Below, one piece after another: positions 3 through 32,800 of a DNA stretch of 37,258 bases. Both the position numbers and the translations under genes were made by a program. Under the pieces are notes generated by a model, which saw only the letters and a list, made by a program, of their open reading frames with translations, did no database searches and was not told where the DNA came from. Source of the stretch: Patescibacteria group bacterium (GTDB taxonomy: Bacteria > Patescibacteriota > Patescibacteriia > JACQRZ01); the NCBI GenBank assembly GCA_038065125.1, contig JBBTRP010000060.1, positions 10,848-48,105 on the forward strand, given 5' to 3'. The first letter of the stretch is position 1. Each line of letters starts with the position of its first letter.

Positions 3-2081
3 AAGAGCAGTACAACCACAAACCCCCCAGTCCGCACTGCAGAGGTGACGGTTGACAGAATCGTGGAAAAACCGCTTCCCCGCATTACATCAATTTCTAA
101 TATCAAACCAAAACCAAACGATGAAGGTGTTGTATTTTCTGTGCTCGCGACGAGACGGGCACAGGTAACGTTTGATGTCGCATTTGCGGAGGAGACCTCT
201 GATCCCGTAAAACTTCGAGTTTTCGCGCTCGATGCATCAAAGAAAAAATTTACTGCCGAGAGCGAAATCGCGGGGAAAAAGACCAGTGAAACAGTTACTC
301 TACAAGAACTTCCCGAAGGTACCTACACGCTTCACGCTGAATTTGTTAATACCTATGGAACCACAGGAGAATCCTTTACTCTCCCGGGAAGGATCACCGT
401 CGTAAAACCAAACGAGCCCCCCATTCTTTCTATCACAGACCCTGACCCGGATCCGATTGACTCGGCACAATCTCGAACCTACTTTGCACTTGATGCGCGA
501 AATCGGGAAAGCACATTTCCTTTTACTGTTTCCGTCCAGGATCCGGACAAAAGAGCGGGTGAAAAAGTGCCAACCGTACTCTTCACCATCAAAGACTCCA
601 GCGGAGCGACTCTGGTGAGATCCACGGTATCAGCGCCAAACTACAATGACTCCAAGGATCGTGATCGCATCGGGACACGAAAAGTAACCAGTTCCGATAC
701 TACTGATACGCTCTATACCCTTCAGGAGTCTGCTTTTACAAACGCAAACCGCGAGGTTCTCAGGTCGGCAGGGAAAGGTGGTCGTCTTTCACTTCTCAAG
801 CCAGGCACTTACACGCTTTCCGTAGGAGCGACGGACGCTCGAGGGGATACCGTCACGAAGTCGATGACAGTTCTCGTCAACGACGTTCCAATCGTGCAAT
901 CCATCACCTCTGACCCCCAGGCTCCGGTCATGGTAAAAAAGAAAACTGACTCAGCAACCGTTGCGGTTACGGTCACGGCAACGGATACCGACGGCGTATC
1001 GGAGGTGCGTATCAAGAAGGACAATGATGGGGGCACTCTTGCGCAGCGCATTGGCACTTCAAACGAGTATCAGGCAACCTTTACGCTTCCAGTCGGGGCA
1101 TATATCTTTACCGCTGAAGCGAGTGACACCCATGTTGCTGGCCATACAGAGACCGGGGTTTCGCGCACCGCGCTTACCGTGAGTGTAGTAAAAGAAAATG
1201 AGGCTCCGGCAAAACCAACCTTGTCGACGATCCCCGTCGGGAAAAAGTCGTTTGTCGTTCCGGACGATCTGGTAATCATCAAACTCGAAAACTTTGATGA
1301 TGTGGATGGAGATCCGCTTAGGGTTGAGTTTTTTATCGGAGAAAAAAGAGTAGCTACCAAGAAAATCTCTGATCGTGAGTATCGGCTCGATGCAATCCTG
1401 AATGGCGCCCAGACGATCATCGCGAAAGTATCTGACGATAAAAATCATACCACTGTTTCTGATCCACTCTCGGTAACGTTTGTCGACAAGATTGAAATTG
1501 AGCAGAACGCTCCAAACGGCACAGTAAAAAATCAGCCGATAGTTACCGAGTTCACAACCATGACATCTCAAGAGGGACTAATCATACTCCCTGAAGGTGT
1601 TCGAAAAGCGGACGTCCGCTTTAAAATCAAGGCCAGCGACAATGACGGCTTGCGTGCACTTCGCATTTTTGAGCAAGGAAATGAGTTAGCGGGAAAAACA
1701 GTCCAGTACTCGCCCGCAGTAAAGCAAGTCTCGCACGAAATTCCGTTCGAGCAACTTGATGCGGGCGTGCATCAGTTTGTCGCACGGGCCATGGATGTTG
1801 GAGGCACACTTTCCCTTCGCAAGGAGTTCTTCGTGTATGTTGCCGGGGATGCTCCGGCGCGCACACGTACAGACACAGGGTCATCGGCAAAGTGGGGAAG
1901 TCCCGGGATTTCACTCAAGGAAAATATTTTGTCTTCGTATGAGACGGCGCGCGGCATAGTTTCCACGCGTATAAAGAAAACAACCCCCTCAAAGGGCGGC
2001 GCGCCGCGTCTCTCGATCCCGCAACAAAAAAAGCCCGGTGCTGACCAGGCAAAGGTTGACGTCAGAAGAACGAGGAAGTAG
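3..2081 (+). CDS. Large surface/secreted protein with about 5 tandem Ig-like beta-sandwich repeats (5'-partial)
   Basis: Frame is open from the window edge (KSSTTTNPPVRTAEV...), so the ORF-track start at 45 is internal. Recurring motifs: N-x-x-P starts (PNEPP, VNDVP, ENEAP), DxDG turns (TDTDG, DVDGD, SDNDG) and G-x-Y-x-[LF]-x-A strands (GTYTLHAE, GTYTLSVGATD, GAYIFTAEASD, GVHQFVARAMD). Basic low-complexity C-terminal tail. Confidence 0.8.
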   Translation, partial: KSSTTTNPPVRTAEVTVDRIVEKPLPRITSISNIKPKPNDEGVVFSVLATRRAQVTFDVAFAEETSDPVKLRVFALDASKKKFTAESEIAGKKTSETVTLQELPEGTYTLHAEFVNTYGTTGESFTLPGRITVVKPNEPPILSITDPDPDPIDSAQSRTYFALDARNRESTFPFTVSVQDPDKRAGEKVPTVLFTIKDSSGATLVRSTVSAPNYNDSKDRDRIGTRKVTSSDTTDTLYTLQESAFTNANREVLRSAGKGGRLSLLKPGTYTLSVGATDARGDTVTKSMTVLVNDVPIVQSITSDPQAPVMVKKKTDSATVAVTVTATDTDGVSEVRIKKDNDGGTLAQRIGTSNEYQATFTLPVGAYIFTAEASDTHVAGHTETGVSRTALTVSVVKENEAPAKPTLSTIPVGKKSFVVPDDLVIIKLENFDDVDGDPLRVEFFIGEKRVATKKISDREYRLDAILNGAQTIIAKVSDDKNHTTVSDPLSVTFVDKIEIEQNAPNGTVKNQPIVTEFTTMTSQEGLIILPEGVRKADVRFKIKASDNDGLRALRIFEQGNELAGKTVQYSPAVKQVSHEIPFEQLDAGVHQFVARAMDVGGTLSLRKEFFVYVAGDAPARTRTDTGSSAKWGSPGISLKENILSSYETARGIVSTRIKKTTPSKGGAPRLSIPQQKKPGADQAKVDVRRTRK

Positions 2082-2088
2082 AAAAAGA

Positions 2089-2592
2089 CTAGAACGGACT
2101 CTTGTCCGAGAAGGTGATGCGAACCGCAGATTCACCGCCGGTGTTCATCTCGATAAACGCGTATTGGCCCACGGCGAGTTGTTTTTGGTCGGCACGCTGA
2201 GGAACGAAATAGGGTTTTCCATCAACAACGGTTTCTTTTTGGAAAAAATATTCGGTCGGGGCAGAGAGTCCTACGGAAAGTTGTCCGGGCCGCTCAAAGG
2301 GAGCGGCTCCCTCCTTCGAATCAAGAATCGCAACCTTGATGGACTCCTCGGAAACGGATTTCACGAGAGCATAAAAGGACTGCGGAATCACCAGTTCTTG
2401 TTGTTGGGGTACGGAGAGTCGAGGTGCTCCACCTGTAGCGGGACCGGGCGTCGGAGCCGACACTTGAGGCGGTGTGCTTTTCGGTAAGGGTAGAGAGGAT
2501 ATGAGCGCAATCAATCCAACGAGCGCGGCGCCAACGCCAATCCACGTCCACTGTTCTCGAGTAAGTTTTATTTTTGTGAAAGAAGACATCAT
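2089..2592 (-). CDS. Single-pass membrane protein: N-terminal TM helix, Pro-rich linker, small beta-rich (OB-fold/DUF5666-like) domain
   Basis: 167 aa ORF. Hydrophobic WTWIGVGAALVGLIALISSL, then PLPKSTPPQVSAPTPGP linker. The C-terminal pattern (ALVKSVSEESIKV...QLAVGQYAFIE...AVRITF) resembles OB-like domains; the fold is a guess. Confidence 0.7.
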   Translation of the reverse strand: MMSSFTKIKLTREQWTWIGVGAALVGLIALISSLPLPKSTPPQVSAPTPGPATGGAPRLSVPQQQELVIPQSFYALVKSVSEESIKVAILDSKEGAAPFERPGQLSVGLSAPTEYFFQKETVVDGKPYFVPQRADQKQLAVGQYAFIEMNTGGESAVRITFSDKSPF

Positions 2593-5626: not shown

Positions 5627-6199
5627 ATGATCGCATTCCTCACGGGCACCGTTGCCGAGCGCGGTGGCGCGTCGATCGTCCTTGAGGTCCACGATGTCGG
5701 ATATCGGCTTTCTGTTCCCGAAAGTACGCTGCGAACGTGCGCGGTCGGGGAGCGGCTCACGCTCCATGTCCACTACCATCAGCGCGACGAGGCACCTGAA
5801 CTCTACGGGTTTCAGACGAAAGAAGAGCTTTCATTATTTTCAAAATTGATTTCTGTTTCCGGAGTGGGTCCCAAGACCGCTCTTGCCGCTCTTAGTGTTG
5901 CGTCGCCAGACGGCATTGCGGGAGCGATCGCACGGGGCGATGCGGGACTTCTACGGACGGTCTCGGGCATCGGTTCAAAGACTGCTGAACGGATTGTCGT
6001 TGAGTTGCGCGACGCGCTTGCGCGCGAGATGGTCGCACACGCCAACGGGAGAGAGGGGAGCGATGTCGATCTTATCGAGGCGTTGGTCGGTCTTGGATAT
6101 TCACCCCTCGATGCGCAGCGCGCGCTTCGCTCGATTCCACCCGAGTGCACCGACGTGTCCGACCGACTAAAAGCCGCACTCAAGGGCCTGGGACGATAG
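5627..6199 (+). CDS. ruvA: Holliday junction branch migration protein RuvA
   Basis: MIAFLTG..., DVGY, ELYGF, HhH motifs VSGVGPKTA and VSGIGSKTAERIVVEL, C-terminal EALVGLGY. Confidence 0.96.
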   Translation: MIAFLTGTVAERGGASIVLEVHDVGYRLSVPESTLRTCAVGERLTLHVHYHQRDEAPELYGFQTKEELSLFSKLISVSGVGPKTALAALSVASPDGIAGAIARGDAGLLRTVSGIGSKTAERIVVELRDALAREMVAHANGREGSDVDLIEALVGLGYSPLDAQRALRSIPPECTDVSDRLKAALKGLGR

Positions 6200-6207
6200 C
6201 GACGATT

Positions 6208-7278
6208 ATGGGACAAGGCGACATTCAGGCGGGGGAGTGGAATGCTTTTTTGCGCGCCCATCAGCACGTTCAGTTTTTGCAATCGTGGGAGTGGGGGATG
6301 TTTCATGAGTCGCTGGGGCGTGCCGTGTCACGAACAGTCCTTTGCGATCACACAGGTCAATTTTCAGGAATTGGTCAGTGTGTGGACCTGCCGATCGTGG
6401 GTAAATTTTTTTATACGCATCTTCCGCACGGTCCGGTTGCCCAGGACTCTCGATCCGCCGAGCGTACACTGATTCGAGTTTTGCGGGCGACTCGCGAGCG
6501 CGGCGCCGTCTTTTTGCGCATCGAGCCACTCGCAAACCTTGAGCAATCGGAGCTGATCACCAAAAACAGCAAGAGGGTTCCCGACGTCCAGCCCTCTCAT
6601 ACGAGAATTCTTGATCTTTCTTGTTCGCGTGAGGAGCTACTCTCTCTGATGCATCCAAAGACGCGTTACAATATCGGACTTGCTCAAAAAAAAGGAGTCA
6701 CCGTATCTTCCTTGAGCGAAAAGTCACCCGAAGAGCGTACAGACCTCATCCATGCAGCGTGTGAACTTCTTAAAGAGACCGCAGGACGAGATCGGTTTTT
6801 CCTACACCCGATACAGTACTATCAGTCTCTTCTTGAAACGTTTCCCTCCCTCGATACCCGGAAAGGAGCAGACAGTCCCGCAGTGGAGCTTCTCTACGCC
6901 TCCACAGAGCAGGGGATCCGCGCCATTGCGATCGTGCTTTTTTTTGGCGACACAGCAACCTATCTGTATGGGGCGAGCAGCGGAAAGTTTCGTAATCTCA
7001 TGGCTCCCTACGCGCTGCACTGGCACGCTCTCTCACTAGCACAGAAGGCCGGGTGCCGATGGTACGACTTTTGGGGTATTGCACCAGACGACTCGGAAAA
7101 TCATCCGCTCGCGGGCGTCACTCGCTTTAAGGAGGGATTCGGGGGGGAGCGGATGCAGTATCCCGGAACCTATGATATTGTATTGAAGCCCTTCGAGTAC
7201 CGGATTTATCAGGTCGCACGAAGTATCCATCGTCGCACTCGTCGTTCAACGGATAGGACACGGGCCTCCGAAGCCTGA
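6208..7278 (+). CDS. FemABX-family peptidoglycan peptidyltransferase (lipid II:aminoacyl-tRNA transferase)
   Basis: FLQSWEWG, PHGPV, FLRIEP, MHPKTRYNI, ATYLYGAS, YDFWGI, GVTRFKEGFGG. ATG 6208 is preferred because the track start overlaps ruvA. The 3' end overlaps a tRNA. Confidence 0.9.
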   Translation: MGQGDIQAGEWNAFLRAHQHVQFLQSWEWGMFHESLGRAVSRTVLCDHTGQFSGIGQCVDLPIVGKFFYTHLPHGPVAQDSRSAERTLIRVLRATRERGAVFLRIEPLANLEQSELITKNSKRVPDVQPSHTRILDLSCSREELLSLMHPKTRYNIGLAQKKGVTVSSLSEKSPEERTDLIHAACELLKETAGRDRFFLHPIQYYQSLLETFPSLDTRKGADSPAVELLYASTEQGIRAIAIVLFFGDTATYLYGASSGKFRNLMAPYALHWHALSLAQKAGCRWYDFWGIAPDDSENHPLAGVTRFKEGFGGERMQYPGTYDIVLKPFEYRIYQVARSIHRRTRRSTDRTRASEA

Positions 7279-7306
7279 AATACAGGTTCGATTCCTGTCG
7301 AGTGCA
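7235..7306 (+). tRNA. tRNA-Arg (anticodon CCG), no encoded CCA
   Basis: Acceptor GCACTCG/CGAGTGC; D arm GTTC-AACGGATA-GGAC with A20; anticodon arm CGGGC-CTCCGAA-GCCTG; T arm ACAGG-TTCGATT-CCTGT. Confidence 0.95.
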
Positions 7307-31338: not shown

Positions 31339-31378
31339 AAAACACCGCAGCACTCAGTTTGCACCCCGCGGTGTTTTT
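31339..31378 (+). terminator. Putative intrinsic terminator after pilT
   Basis: AAAACACCGC...GCGGTGTTTTT (large loop). Confidence 0.55.
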
Positions 31379-31404
31379 GGTGTATCGTGTCTTTATTCTC
31401 TATT

Positions 31405-31476
31405 GCGCCCGTCGTTCAACGGATAGGATGTCAGGCTTCGAACCTGAAGATGGGAGTTCGATTCTCTCCGGGCGCA
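31405..31476 (+). tRNA. tRNA-Arg (anticodon TCG), no encoded CCA
   Basis: Acceptor GCGCCCG/CGGGCGC; anticodon arm TCAGG-CTTCGAA-CCTGA; T arm GGGAG-TTCGATT-CTCTC; A20 present. Confidence 0.95.
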
Positions 31477-31520
31477 TGAGAGTGAAGCGAATATGCAACC
31501 GAGCGACAGAACTGAAAAAA

Positions 31521-32102
31521 ATGAAAAAACGAGTCATCATTGTTCATGGGTGGGGGGGCGCGCCGAGTGACGGGTGGTTTCCCTGGCTGAAGGAAAAAAT
31601 TGAAGAGCGGGGAGATCAGGTGGTGATTCCTGCGATGCCCGAGCCCAACGCGCCGCATATCGACGCGTGGGTCCGCGCGTTGTTTGAGGTTGCTGGAGTT
31701 GCGGACGCGCAGACATTCTTTGTCGGGCACAGCATGGGGTGCGCTGCGATCGTTCGCTATTGCGAGGCGCTCCCTGAGGGCGCCCTGATCGGCGGGGCGG
31801 TGTTTGTCGCAGGATTTTTCAAACGTGTCACAGCGCTCGATCAAAAAGAAGAAGAACGCGAGATACTCCGCGAGTGGCTCGACGCGTCCGTTGATTTTTC
31901 CGCCGCCGCGACACGCATCAAGAAGAGTATTGCGATCTTTTCAGATAATGACCCCTACGTCCCAATTGAGAACGTTGACGACTTCCGTGACAAGCTAGGA
32001 TCAGAAATTATCATCGTTCCCGGAGCGGGCCACTTCTCCGGACCCCGGGACGGCACGCGCGAACCCCCGATTGTTCTTGAGAGTATTTTGAAAATTTCTT
32101 AA
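31521..32102 (+). CDS. Alpha/beta hydrolase, RBBP9/YdeN family
   Basis: IIVHGWGG, WFPWL, GHSMG nucleophile elbow, SDNDPYV, GAGHF. Start moved to ATG 31521, downstream of the tRNA. Confidence 0.92.
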   Translation: MKKRVIIVHGWGGAPSDGWFPWLKEKIEERGDQVVIPAMPEPNAPHIDAWVRALFEVAGVADAQTFFVGHSMGCAAIVRYCEALPEGALIGGAVFVAGFFKRVTALDQKEEEREILREWLDASVDFSAAATRIKKSIAIFSDNDPYVPIENVDDFRDKLGSEIIIVPGAGHFSGPRDGTREPPIVLESILKIS

Positions 32103-32724: not shown

Positions 32725-32800
32725 GCGTCGCTAGCTCAATCGGCAGAGCAGGGGCCTCTTAAGCCCAAGGTTCCGGGTTCGATTCCCGGGCGACGCACCA
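32725..32800 (+). tRNA. tRNA-Lys (anticodon CTT) with encoded CCA
   Basis: Acceptor GCGTCGC/GCGACGC-ACCA; D arm GCTC..GAGC; anticodon loop CTCTTAA; T arm CCGGG-TTCGATT-CCCGG. Confidence 0.95.

Follow-up and report, generated by a model that had tools for sequence, protein, structure and literature searches.

A short peptide common to two unrelated convergent envelope genes of a groundwater bacterium of the Patescibacteria, a candidate recognition motif

Why should two unrelated envelope genes that converge on each other encode almost the same short peptide? The question is raised by one end of a 37,258-nucleotide stretch of DNA (the window; G000:C60:10848-48105) from an uncultivated groundwater bacterium of the Patescibacteria, whose genome comprises 1.04 Mb in 75 contigs with 52% G+C. 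One copy of the peptide, GGAPRLSIPQQ (1995..2027, + strand), lies in the C-terminal tail of a large secreted protein with thrombospondin type-1 and immunoglobulin (Ig)-like repeats, and the other, GGAPRLSVPQQ (2401..2433, - strand; residues 54-64), lies in the linker of a small membrane-anchored protein; both were located by open reading frame (ORF) reading, a six-frame search and codon comparison. The two copies are inverted relative to each other and lie 373 nucleotides (nt) apart in convergent genes whose stop codons are separated by 7 nt. Ten of the 11 residues are identical. The copies differ at 9 of 33 bases, eight of these differences falling at third codon positions and one at a first position, where it distinguishes I from V (hypergeometric P = 9.6e-5 for at least eight of nine differences at third positions). 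The peptide, its coordinates and the eight differing third positions out of 11 had been given in a preliminary description of this DNA and are correct to the base. The lack of similarity in the flanks, which it had also claimed, is borne out by a BLASTP alignment of the two proteins that is 16 residues long and by a blastn-short comparison of the flanks that returned only 7-8 nt words. Judged from the sequence, it is the peptide and not the DNA that is kept. Our favoured reading, which we hold tentatively and at a little under half, is that both copies represent a lineage-private short recognition peptide that would be read by one extracellular partner.

Protein searches covered 5.8 billion clustered proteins and 1.84 billion representative proteins. 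Close relatives of the small protein are near-identical strain variants (P0001, P0016 and P0017; 99% identity or the same cluster), and there is one deep sister lineage at 44% identity, consisting of P0002/P0018 (168 and 173 amino acids (aa)) and P0005 (184 aa), with P0002 and P0005 80% identical to each other. The representative library yielded only P0001, P0002 and a low-complexity match, P0004; no relative was found by these searches in the genomes of 60 relatives, nor by a related-locus search of the public collections genome_contigs and metagenome_contigs. The sister lineage keeps the core GGAPRL[SL][IV]P, as GGAPRLSIPE in P0002 and P0018 and as GGAPRLLIPE in P0005, and its linkers are otherwise different. 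Across the four sequences of alignments A1 and A3, 7 of the 9 core positions are invariant, compared with 6 of the 21 positions before the core and 1 of the 9 after it. Conservation of the motif against its flanks in orthologues had been set as a test beforehand, and for the small protein the core is indeed the conserved part. Neither a motif left unconserved in orthologues nor the neutral decay of an inverted duplication, the two outcomes that were to speak against the idea, was observed. Identity at the level of the peptide, as originally claimed, is supported by differences that follow codon phase, a core kept in relatives of 44% identity and a variable flanking linker. After the core, both copies in the host genome continue with PQQ, where P0002 and P0005 have PE[TA]E instead. 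PQQ is therefore common only within the host genome, which fits copying or co-evolution within the lineage.

For this pair of proteins, 1.4e-6 chance matches of 10 out of 11 residues are expected analytically. In 60 shuffles the best 11-residue match was 5/11 in 16 cases, 6/11 in 42 and 7/11 in two, and never above 7; the small protein's next best 11-mer match to any ORF in 13.6 kb of neighbourhood is also 7/11. Over the whole crude ORF set of the genome (987 ORFs, 337,523 aa), about 0.7 chance matches of 10/11 are expected between any two proteins by arithmetic from the per-pair probability, so the weight of the observation rests on the adjacency of the two genes and on the location of the match, which coincides exactly with the one conserved island of the small protein's linker. 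Within this ORF set, 79 protein pairs have a common 11-mer with at most one mismatch, and 15 of the 79 are without a BLASTP alignment of at least 40 residues. By our own reading, nine of these 15 are near-identical overlaps at ORF or contig ends, and the remaining six, the studied pair among them, are neither paralogues nor contig-end overlaps.

The small protein (167 aa; 2089..2592, - strand) is known from the ORF list and from its relatives P0001/P0016/P0017 and P0002/P0018/P0005; its ORF contains ...TGGAPRLSVPQQQE... and ...PTPGPATGGAPRLSVPQQQELVIPQSFYALVK.... A predicted N-terminal transmembrane helix occupies about residues 12-34 (2491..2559, - strand; helix 12-32 in an AlphaFold2 (AF2) model). 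The positive-inside rule holds that basic residues flank such helices on the cytoplasmic side, and since Lys/Arg precede the helix, the remainder of the protein should be outside the cell. A proline-rich linker that carries the motif follows at residues 35-71 (2380..2490, - strand), with a predicted local distance difference test score (pLDDT) below 50 at residues 33-59 and 61-64. The linker leads into a predicted OB-like beta-barrel domain at residues 72-167 (2092..2379, - strand; AF2 and VIA-align), ending in ...RITFSDKSPF, where pLDDT is 81-94 over residues 71-167 and strands run from residue 72 to 162. The motif is placed about 20 residues past the membrane anchor and about 8 before the OB-like domain. 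The best VIA-align match of the domain is 7zhr_A (Z 6.9, root-mean-square deviation 2.2, 64 aligned residues), a middling score, as Z is below 8; all of the top matches that we recognised are, we take it, OB folds. Foldseek gave no match for the domain at E <= 0.001, a profile search against PDB sequences gave nothing below E 0.38, and no Pfam or NCBIfam family was assigned to the small protein, one Pfam match at E 0.087 being spurious.

The large protein is represented by the 3' 692 codons of its gene (3..2081, + strand; ORF list, Pfam and cluster members), an ORF that is open at its 5' end, contains ...KGGAPRLSIPQQKK... and ends in ...RIKKTTPSKGGAPRLSIPQQKKPGADQAKVDVRRTRK*. Its full-length database variants P0011 and P0013, members of the same cluster, have 906 aa, in which the Ig-like repeats come after two thrombospondin type-1 repeats. 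Pfam identifies TSP_1 (PF00090; E 4.7e-13, 49.6 bits against a cut-off of 21.6) and Big_7 (E 7.1e-12) in P0011, and Big_7 (1.9e-8) plus Big_13 in the ORF at 3..2081. Upstream, at C60:10396, an ORF start resembling a signal peptide leads to the same WSPWSPCSTTCG repeat and is broken by a run of N. With this signal peptide, the large protein is predicted to be extracytoplasmic. The sequence before the WSPWSPCSTTCG repeat (G000:C60:10396-10850) differs from that of P0011, and together with the run of N in the assembly this suggests repeat collapse in the assembly or strain variation. We also observe that two eukaryote-type thrombospondin type-1 repeats are encoded here in a genome of about 1 Mb, and that such repeats occur in ORFs of about 1,800 aa in three relatives from the family; a literature search for 'thrombospondin type 1' together with 'Patescibacteria' gave no match.

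The last part of the large protein is a non-globular tail of about 75 residues (1845..2078, + strand), as predicted by a single-sequence AF2 model and by reading of the sequence. It consists of a predicted helix (ENILSSYETARGIVSTRIKK), the motif and a basic end, KKPGADQAKVDVRRTRK. The motif is 17 residues ahead of the C-terminus, and these 17 residues, being polar or basic, form no hydrophobic segment; the tail, ...TTPSKGGAPRLSIPQQKKPGADQAKVDVRRTRK, contains no LPXTG-like pentapeptide. By sequence, this large, adhesin-like protein has neither a membrane anchor nor a sortase signal. The model of 1380-2078 has a mean pLDDT of 46, values below 50 at residues 156-229 and a helix at 179-200, and is of low confidence overall. 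A flexible setting, as expected of a short linear motif, is therefore seen in the small protein (pLDDT below 50 in the linker vs 81-94 in the domain) and weakly modelled in the large one. The low-complexity segment beside a folded domain that the preliminary description had assigned to both proteins accordingly holds for the small protein by AF2 pLDDT and only weakly for the large protein, where the model comes from a single sequence. The tails of all strain variants of the large protein are identical. Its last 153 residues matched only themselves among proteins of 380-1211 aa, and the 15 family genomes contain no orthologue, since nothing but the thrombospondin type-1 repeats (query residues 6-107) has matches there, in other ORFs about 1,800 aa long.

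How widely is the motif used? Six-frame searches of the genome for GGAPRLS[IV]PQQ, G.APRLS[IV]P, APRLS.P and PRLS[IVL]P each gave exactly two copies, and a degenerate DNA pattern run on 401 genomes of the class (the host, G000, and 400 others) matched the host alone; a reversed control pattern matched one genome. On public contigs, a DNA pattern restricted to CGN, CTN and TCN codons, which other codon choices escape, marked 68 loci in genome_contigs and 95 stretches in metagenome_contigs, of which 80 were fetched (148 loci in total). None of the 148 holds a comparable motif-bearing protein like either of the two studied here. By our own reading, 10 of the 68 belong to one oxidoreductase family (GGAPRLSIP[AGS]YRLP) and most others are wrong-frame matches in GC-rich DNA, and the 80 include 6 of the same oxidoreductase family and one of the P0008 type described below. 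These 16 matches are HdrA/GltD-like oxidoreductases, a few other long ORFs were placed in no family, and we read the remainder of both sets as wrong-frame matches in GC-rich DNA. A motif profile search at E <= 10, with 1087 candidates scored and weaker motif-only matches outside its range, found eight proteins: the large protein, P0001, P0002, P0005, P0007 (an oxidoreductase), P0006, P0008 and P0009. The genome thus has two unrelated carriers, and no further carrier of a comparable kind was found in the 400 other class genomes or the 148 loci. Literature searches for GGAPRLS, GAPRLSIP and GAPRLSVP gave no match. By its distribution the motif is private to the lineage, as far as these sequences indicate, and no clade-wide sorting signal. 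The earlier suggestion of a general sorting, cleavage or glycosylation signal is not supported, given two copies in the genome, one matching genome in 401 and absence from four same-position homologues of the small protein, and the replacement of Ser by Leu in P0005 argues against an essential modified serine.

P0006, P0008 and P0009 (and locus L141) represent a widespread, unannotated secreted family with the conserved block ...Y.G....GGAPRLSIPID..., found in Atlas clusters of 54-143 members in Chloroflexota, Actinomycetota and Acidobacteriota. Over 174 residues P0008 and P0009 have 41% identity, and the family is covered by neither Pfam nor NCBIfam. Its similarity to the two proteins of the window stops at the motif (tblastn E >= 0.015, alignments of 13-34 residues). 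We estimate that a given 9-mer would occur about 20 times by chance in a database of that size.

The genomic position of the small gene was compared in 15 relatives and the host (16 family genomes). IleRS is present in all 16, and 12 of the 15 relatives have at least 1.3 kb of sequence upstream of it. In four of the 12 (G002, G015, G003 and G005, where the copies are in tandem), a similarly built protein is encoded divergently to ileS, as in the host; a membrane helix and a proline-rich linker lead to a domain of about 100 residues whose end reads YS.[ES]SP[FL] or similar. Their neighbours include no Ig-repeat proteins, and neither the motif-bearing linker nor the large protein was found in the 15 relatives. 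On this comparison the small protein belongs to the conserved envelope proteins of this family, and the linker motif and the large neighbour appear as lineage-specific additions. One locus in G005 (L194; G005:C57:23500-43400) has at least four tandem or near-tandem paralogues of the small protein, of 167-219 aa, upstream of ileS. One of these paralogues is the source of a sub-threshold match of a same-position homologue to DUF5666 (E 0.065, 14 bits, cut-off 27); a DUF5666-like assignment is an Atlas lead only (score 0.85), and a literature search found six papers that mention DUF5666, none of them in title or abstract.

Given these observations, we propose that the peptide may be a short linear recognition motif kept by selection, located in exposed flexible segments of two extracytoplasmic proteins. 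It would first have served the small protein, because the 44%-identical lineage also has the motif. Subsequently, about 33 nt were probably copied once, in inverted orientation, from the linker of the small gene into the 3' end of the convergent gene, an event that places the same codons, in frame, on the opposite strand. Both copies would then have been under long purifying selection on their amino acids, with wobble positions randomised. Both peptides may be read by one common partner outside the cell, either a domain of one of the two proteins or a third envelope component, and the anchorless large protein would in this way take advantage of, or compete for, the site used by the membrane-tethered protein, for example for non-covalent retention at the surface. 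Docking or tethering of the anchorless large protein would be the most economical mechanism, with shared processing as its main functional rival. In a more specific form, which we regard as doubtful, retention of the adhesin would be sortase-independent: its C-terminal peptide, captured by the 33-nt inverted copy, would mimic the linker of a housekeeping anchored OB-domain protein and occupy the same receptor pocket, possibly the protein's own OB barrel, by displacing the cis-bound linker. If this were true, it would be an example of a newly acquired surface protein plugged into an existing envelope scaffold. When the OB domain (residues 66-167, alignment A3) and the large protein's last 66 residues were modelled as a complex, the score was 0.02 against a mark of 0.32, which counts neither way.

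Alternatively, the peptide may be a shared processing site, where one extracytoplasmic protease or modifying enzyme would set the OB domain free from its membrane anchor and cut the basic C-terminal tail off the large protein. The motif is suitably placed for this, between anchor and domain in one protein and 17 residues before the C-terminus in the other, both sites are in flexible segments, and conservation at the peptide level fits equally well. We nevertheless consider it unlikely: no protease or sortase gene is near the pair, the single sortase of the genome (PF04203, 89.8 bits; G000:C75:17097-17516) being on another contig; the tail lacks the hydrophobic segment that a sorting signal has; an enzyme dedicated to two substrates would be uneconomical in a genome with no further carriers; and P0005 has Leu in place of Ser. 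It is also conceivable, if slightly less likely, that the tail copy is a relic of a local inverted copy, that the peptide matters only in the small protein and that the second copy persists for unrelated reasons such as overlap with the 3' end signals of the neighbouring gene. The short distance between the inverted copies and between the stop codons suits such an origin, as do a large protein without orthologues that could reveal constraint and a terminator-like hairpin of the small gene that lies inside the large gene's tail beside copy 1. Neutral decay that altered 8 of the 11 wobble bases should, however, have hit first and second positions as well, where only 1 of 22 differs, and the terminator-like element covers 2023-2050 and not the motif codons at 1995-2022. 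We consider it a slightly weaker proposition again that two low-complexity segments rich in G, A, P, S and Q have become identical by chance. Composition is biased in both segments, exact GGAPRLSIP occurs in unrelated families (the HdrA/GltD-like oxidoreductases and P0006/P0008/P0009), random wobble bases are predicted by this explanation too, about 0.7 matches are expected between any two ORFs, and by our own arithmetic a handful would be expected between adjacent genes over about 250,000 windows. Set against this are the expectation of 1.4e-6 for the adjacent pair, shuffles that reached at most 7/11, the exact position of the match on the conserved island of the linker, and the small number of 11-mer-sharing pairs (6 of 79) that are neither paralogues nor contig-end overlaps. 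Chance and a functionless relic together keep about a quarter of our belief, because the large protein's copy has no orthologue for a conservation comparison.

The imperfect inverted repeat could instead act as nucleic acid, as a long-range stem in a read-through transcript or as a DNA cruciform, with the structure and not the peptide under selection. An RNA duplex of the two + strand arms reaches -38.4 kcal/mol vs -22.5 +/- 3.8 in shuffled sequences (0 of 300 shuffles reach the value), in the minimum-free-energy fold of 1960-2470 the two copies pair with each other at 26 positions, and no + strand terminator-like site was found between the genes. We regard this explanation as very improbable. 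The mismatches fall every third base, in the codon phase of both genes, and by our own reading only 1 of the 9 differences gives a G-U pair; with 24 of 33 positions matching, this is the opposite of compensatory change, and a perfect repeat would reach -76.9 kcal/mol. The pairing is an automatic outcome of encoding a G/A/P/R-rich peptide on both strands, the stem would need a 373-nt loop, and the first 6 kb contain 17 other inverted pairs (20-26 nt, 71-80% complementarity) in a list from which the repeat finder omitted the motif pair.

The terminator-like element mentioned above is a hairpin with a T run that would serve the small gene (2023..2050, - strand; stem 2050-2033, then TTTTTTTGTT), recognised by a consensus match only. 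It lies within the coding tail of the large gene (codons for QQKKPGADQA) and directly adjoins motif copy 1. Two terminator-like sites were observed vs 1.4 +/- 1.2 in shuffles, which is not above expectation. Contigs from an RNA library cover only 2017-2357 (341 nt, starting at 2017) and 2449-2700; they reveal neither the strand nor the ends of transcripts, and their lack of cover elsewhere is uninformative. In three studies, contigs of DNA runs cover part or all of the stretch with zero differences and so offer no population variation for a test of selection.

Several observations weigh against a recognition motif shared by the two proteins. Only two independent lineages of the small protein are available, so that the conservation of its motif is in effect one deep pairwise comparison. 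No second motif-bearing protein (71-2000 aa) of the P0002/P0005 lineage was found in the search of 5.8 billion proteins, where 1087 candidates were scored; the contigs of that lineage are short (2.5-7 kb), however. The motif is absent from the same-position homologues in the four relatives, whose best matches to non-paralogous neighbours within 15-20 kb are 6-7/11, compared with 10/11 in the host; the exception is G005, where the homologue shares 9/11 with a paralogue. As no orthologue of the large protein was found, selection on its copy rests on the improbability of chance and on the codon pattern, and this pattern would look alike under a chance match, of which a handful between adjacent genes were expected above.

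Does the recognition motif that we favour correspond to a known system? LPXTG-type sortase signals are likewise short peptides of surface proteins, placed towards the membrane-proximal end and ahead of a basic tail, and the host genome does encode a sortase. The motif differs from them in that an LPXTG-like pentapeptide is lacking, that nothing hydrophobic separates it from the basic end, that in one carrier an N-terminal anchor precedes it, and that the genome has only two carriers with none in 400 class relatives. We therefore reject identity with a sortase signal, as two defining features fail. Closer in kind are the short linear motifs of disordered, proline-rich segments, for instance those bound by SH3-like or WW-like reader domains: they also consist of a few residues with Pro and Arg (9-11 in our case) forming a conserved island in a flexible linker, and their carriers are unrelated by descent. 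Unlike them, the motif in the window has no reader domain that we could find and is limited to one small lineage. In donor-strand complementation and exchange, known from chaperone-usher and type V pili, a terminal peptide completes or occupies the beta-fold of another subunit, which could also occur here, where the gene for an Ig-repeat protein adjoins that for a small beta-barrel protein; in contrast to those systems, no chaperone, usher or pilin-type genes are among the Pfam hits of the neighbourhood. Cohesin-dockerin, SLH and other non-covalent anchoring modules are folded, 40-150 residues long and belong to known families. The retention proposed here would resemble them in that an anchorless secreted protein is held by a membrane- or wall-bound partner, but the element in question has 9-11 residues and matches no Pfam or NCBIfam family. 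The P0006/P0008/P0009 family has the exact 9-mer GGAPRLSIP, though inside a conserved folded block, and is absent from the host genome. The peptide is best described as a short linear motif of surface proteins whose sequence is new, and no known family fits it.

Among the other features of the neighbourhood, the pair is flanked by genes for IleRS, RuvA, FemAB and RpoB/C downstream and by unannotated secreted proteins upstream. Two adjacent secreted proteins of 764 and 414 aa without a Pfam family (L002:1189-3483 and L002:3489-4733, both + strand; upstream on G000:C60) have a nearly identical C-terminal stretch (...LALS[IT]DRVGLDVAELFETEEPVEVGEILVVGKADRKLKK... to ...GIALEAY), which suggests that duplication or gene conversion has recently taken place in this cluster of large surface proteins. 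Three tRNA genes were identified in the window: tRNA-Arg(ccg) at 7235-7306, which overlaps the end of a mechanically called FemAB-like ORF (6145-7278); tRNA-Arg(tcg) at 31404-31477, which lies inside another such ORF (31359-32102) whose hydrolase domain begins only at residue 59; and tRNA-Lys(ctt) at 32725-32800. The overlaps indicate that the limits of these two ORFs are over-extended. Elsewhere in the host genome, ORFs at contig ends (e.g. C37/C44, C64/C62, C57/C63, C36/C72, C12/C19, C12/C4 and C30/C73) have identical stretches of 17-18 residues, which look like assembly k-mer overlaps that could join contigs.

For the present, the locus is of value less as a new system than as a well-controlled case of conservation at the level of the peptide and not of the DNA, in a motif confined to two proteins of one uncultivated groundwater lineage. 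Should the peptide serve in docking or recognition, it would reveal how ultra-small uncultivated groundwater bacteria fix large adhesin-like proteins to their envelope without the usual anchors, and would demonstrate that a working interaction motif can arise from a very short inverted copy between convergent genes.

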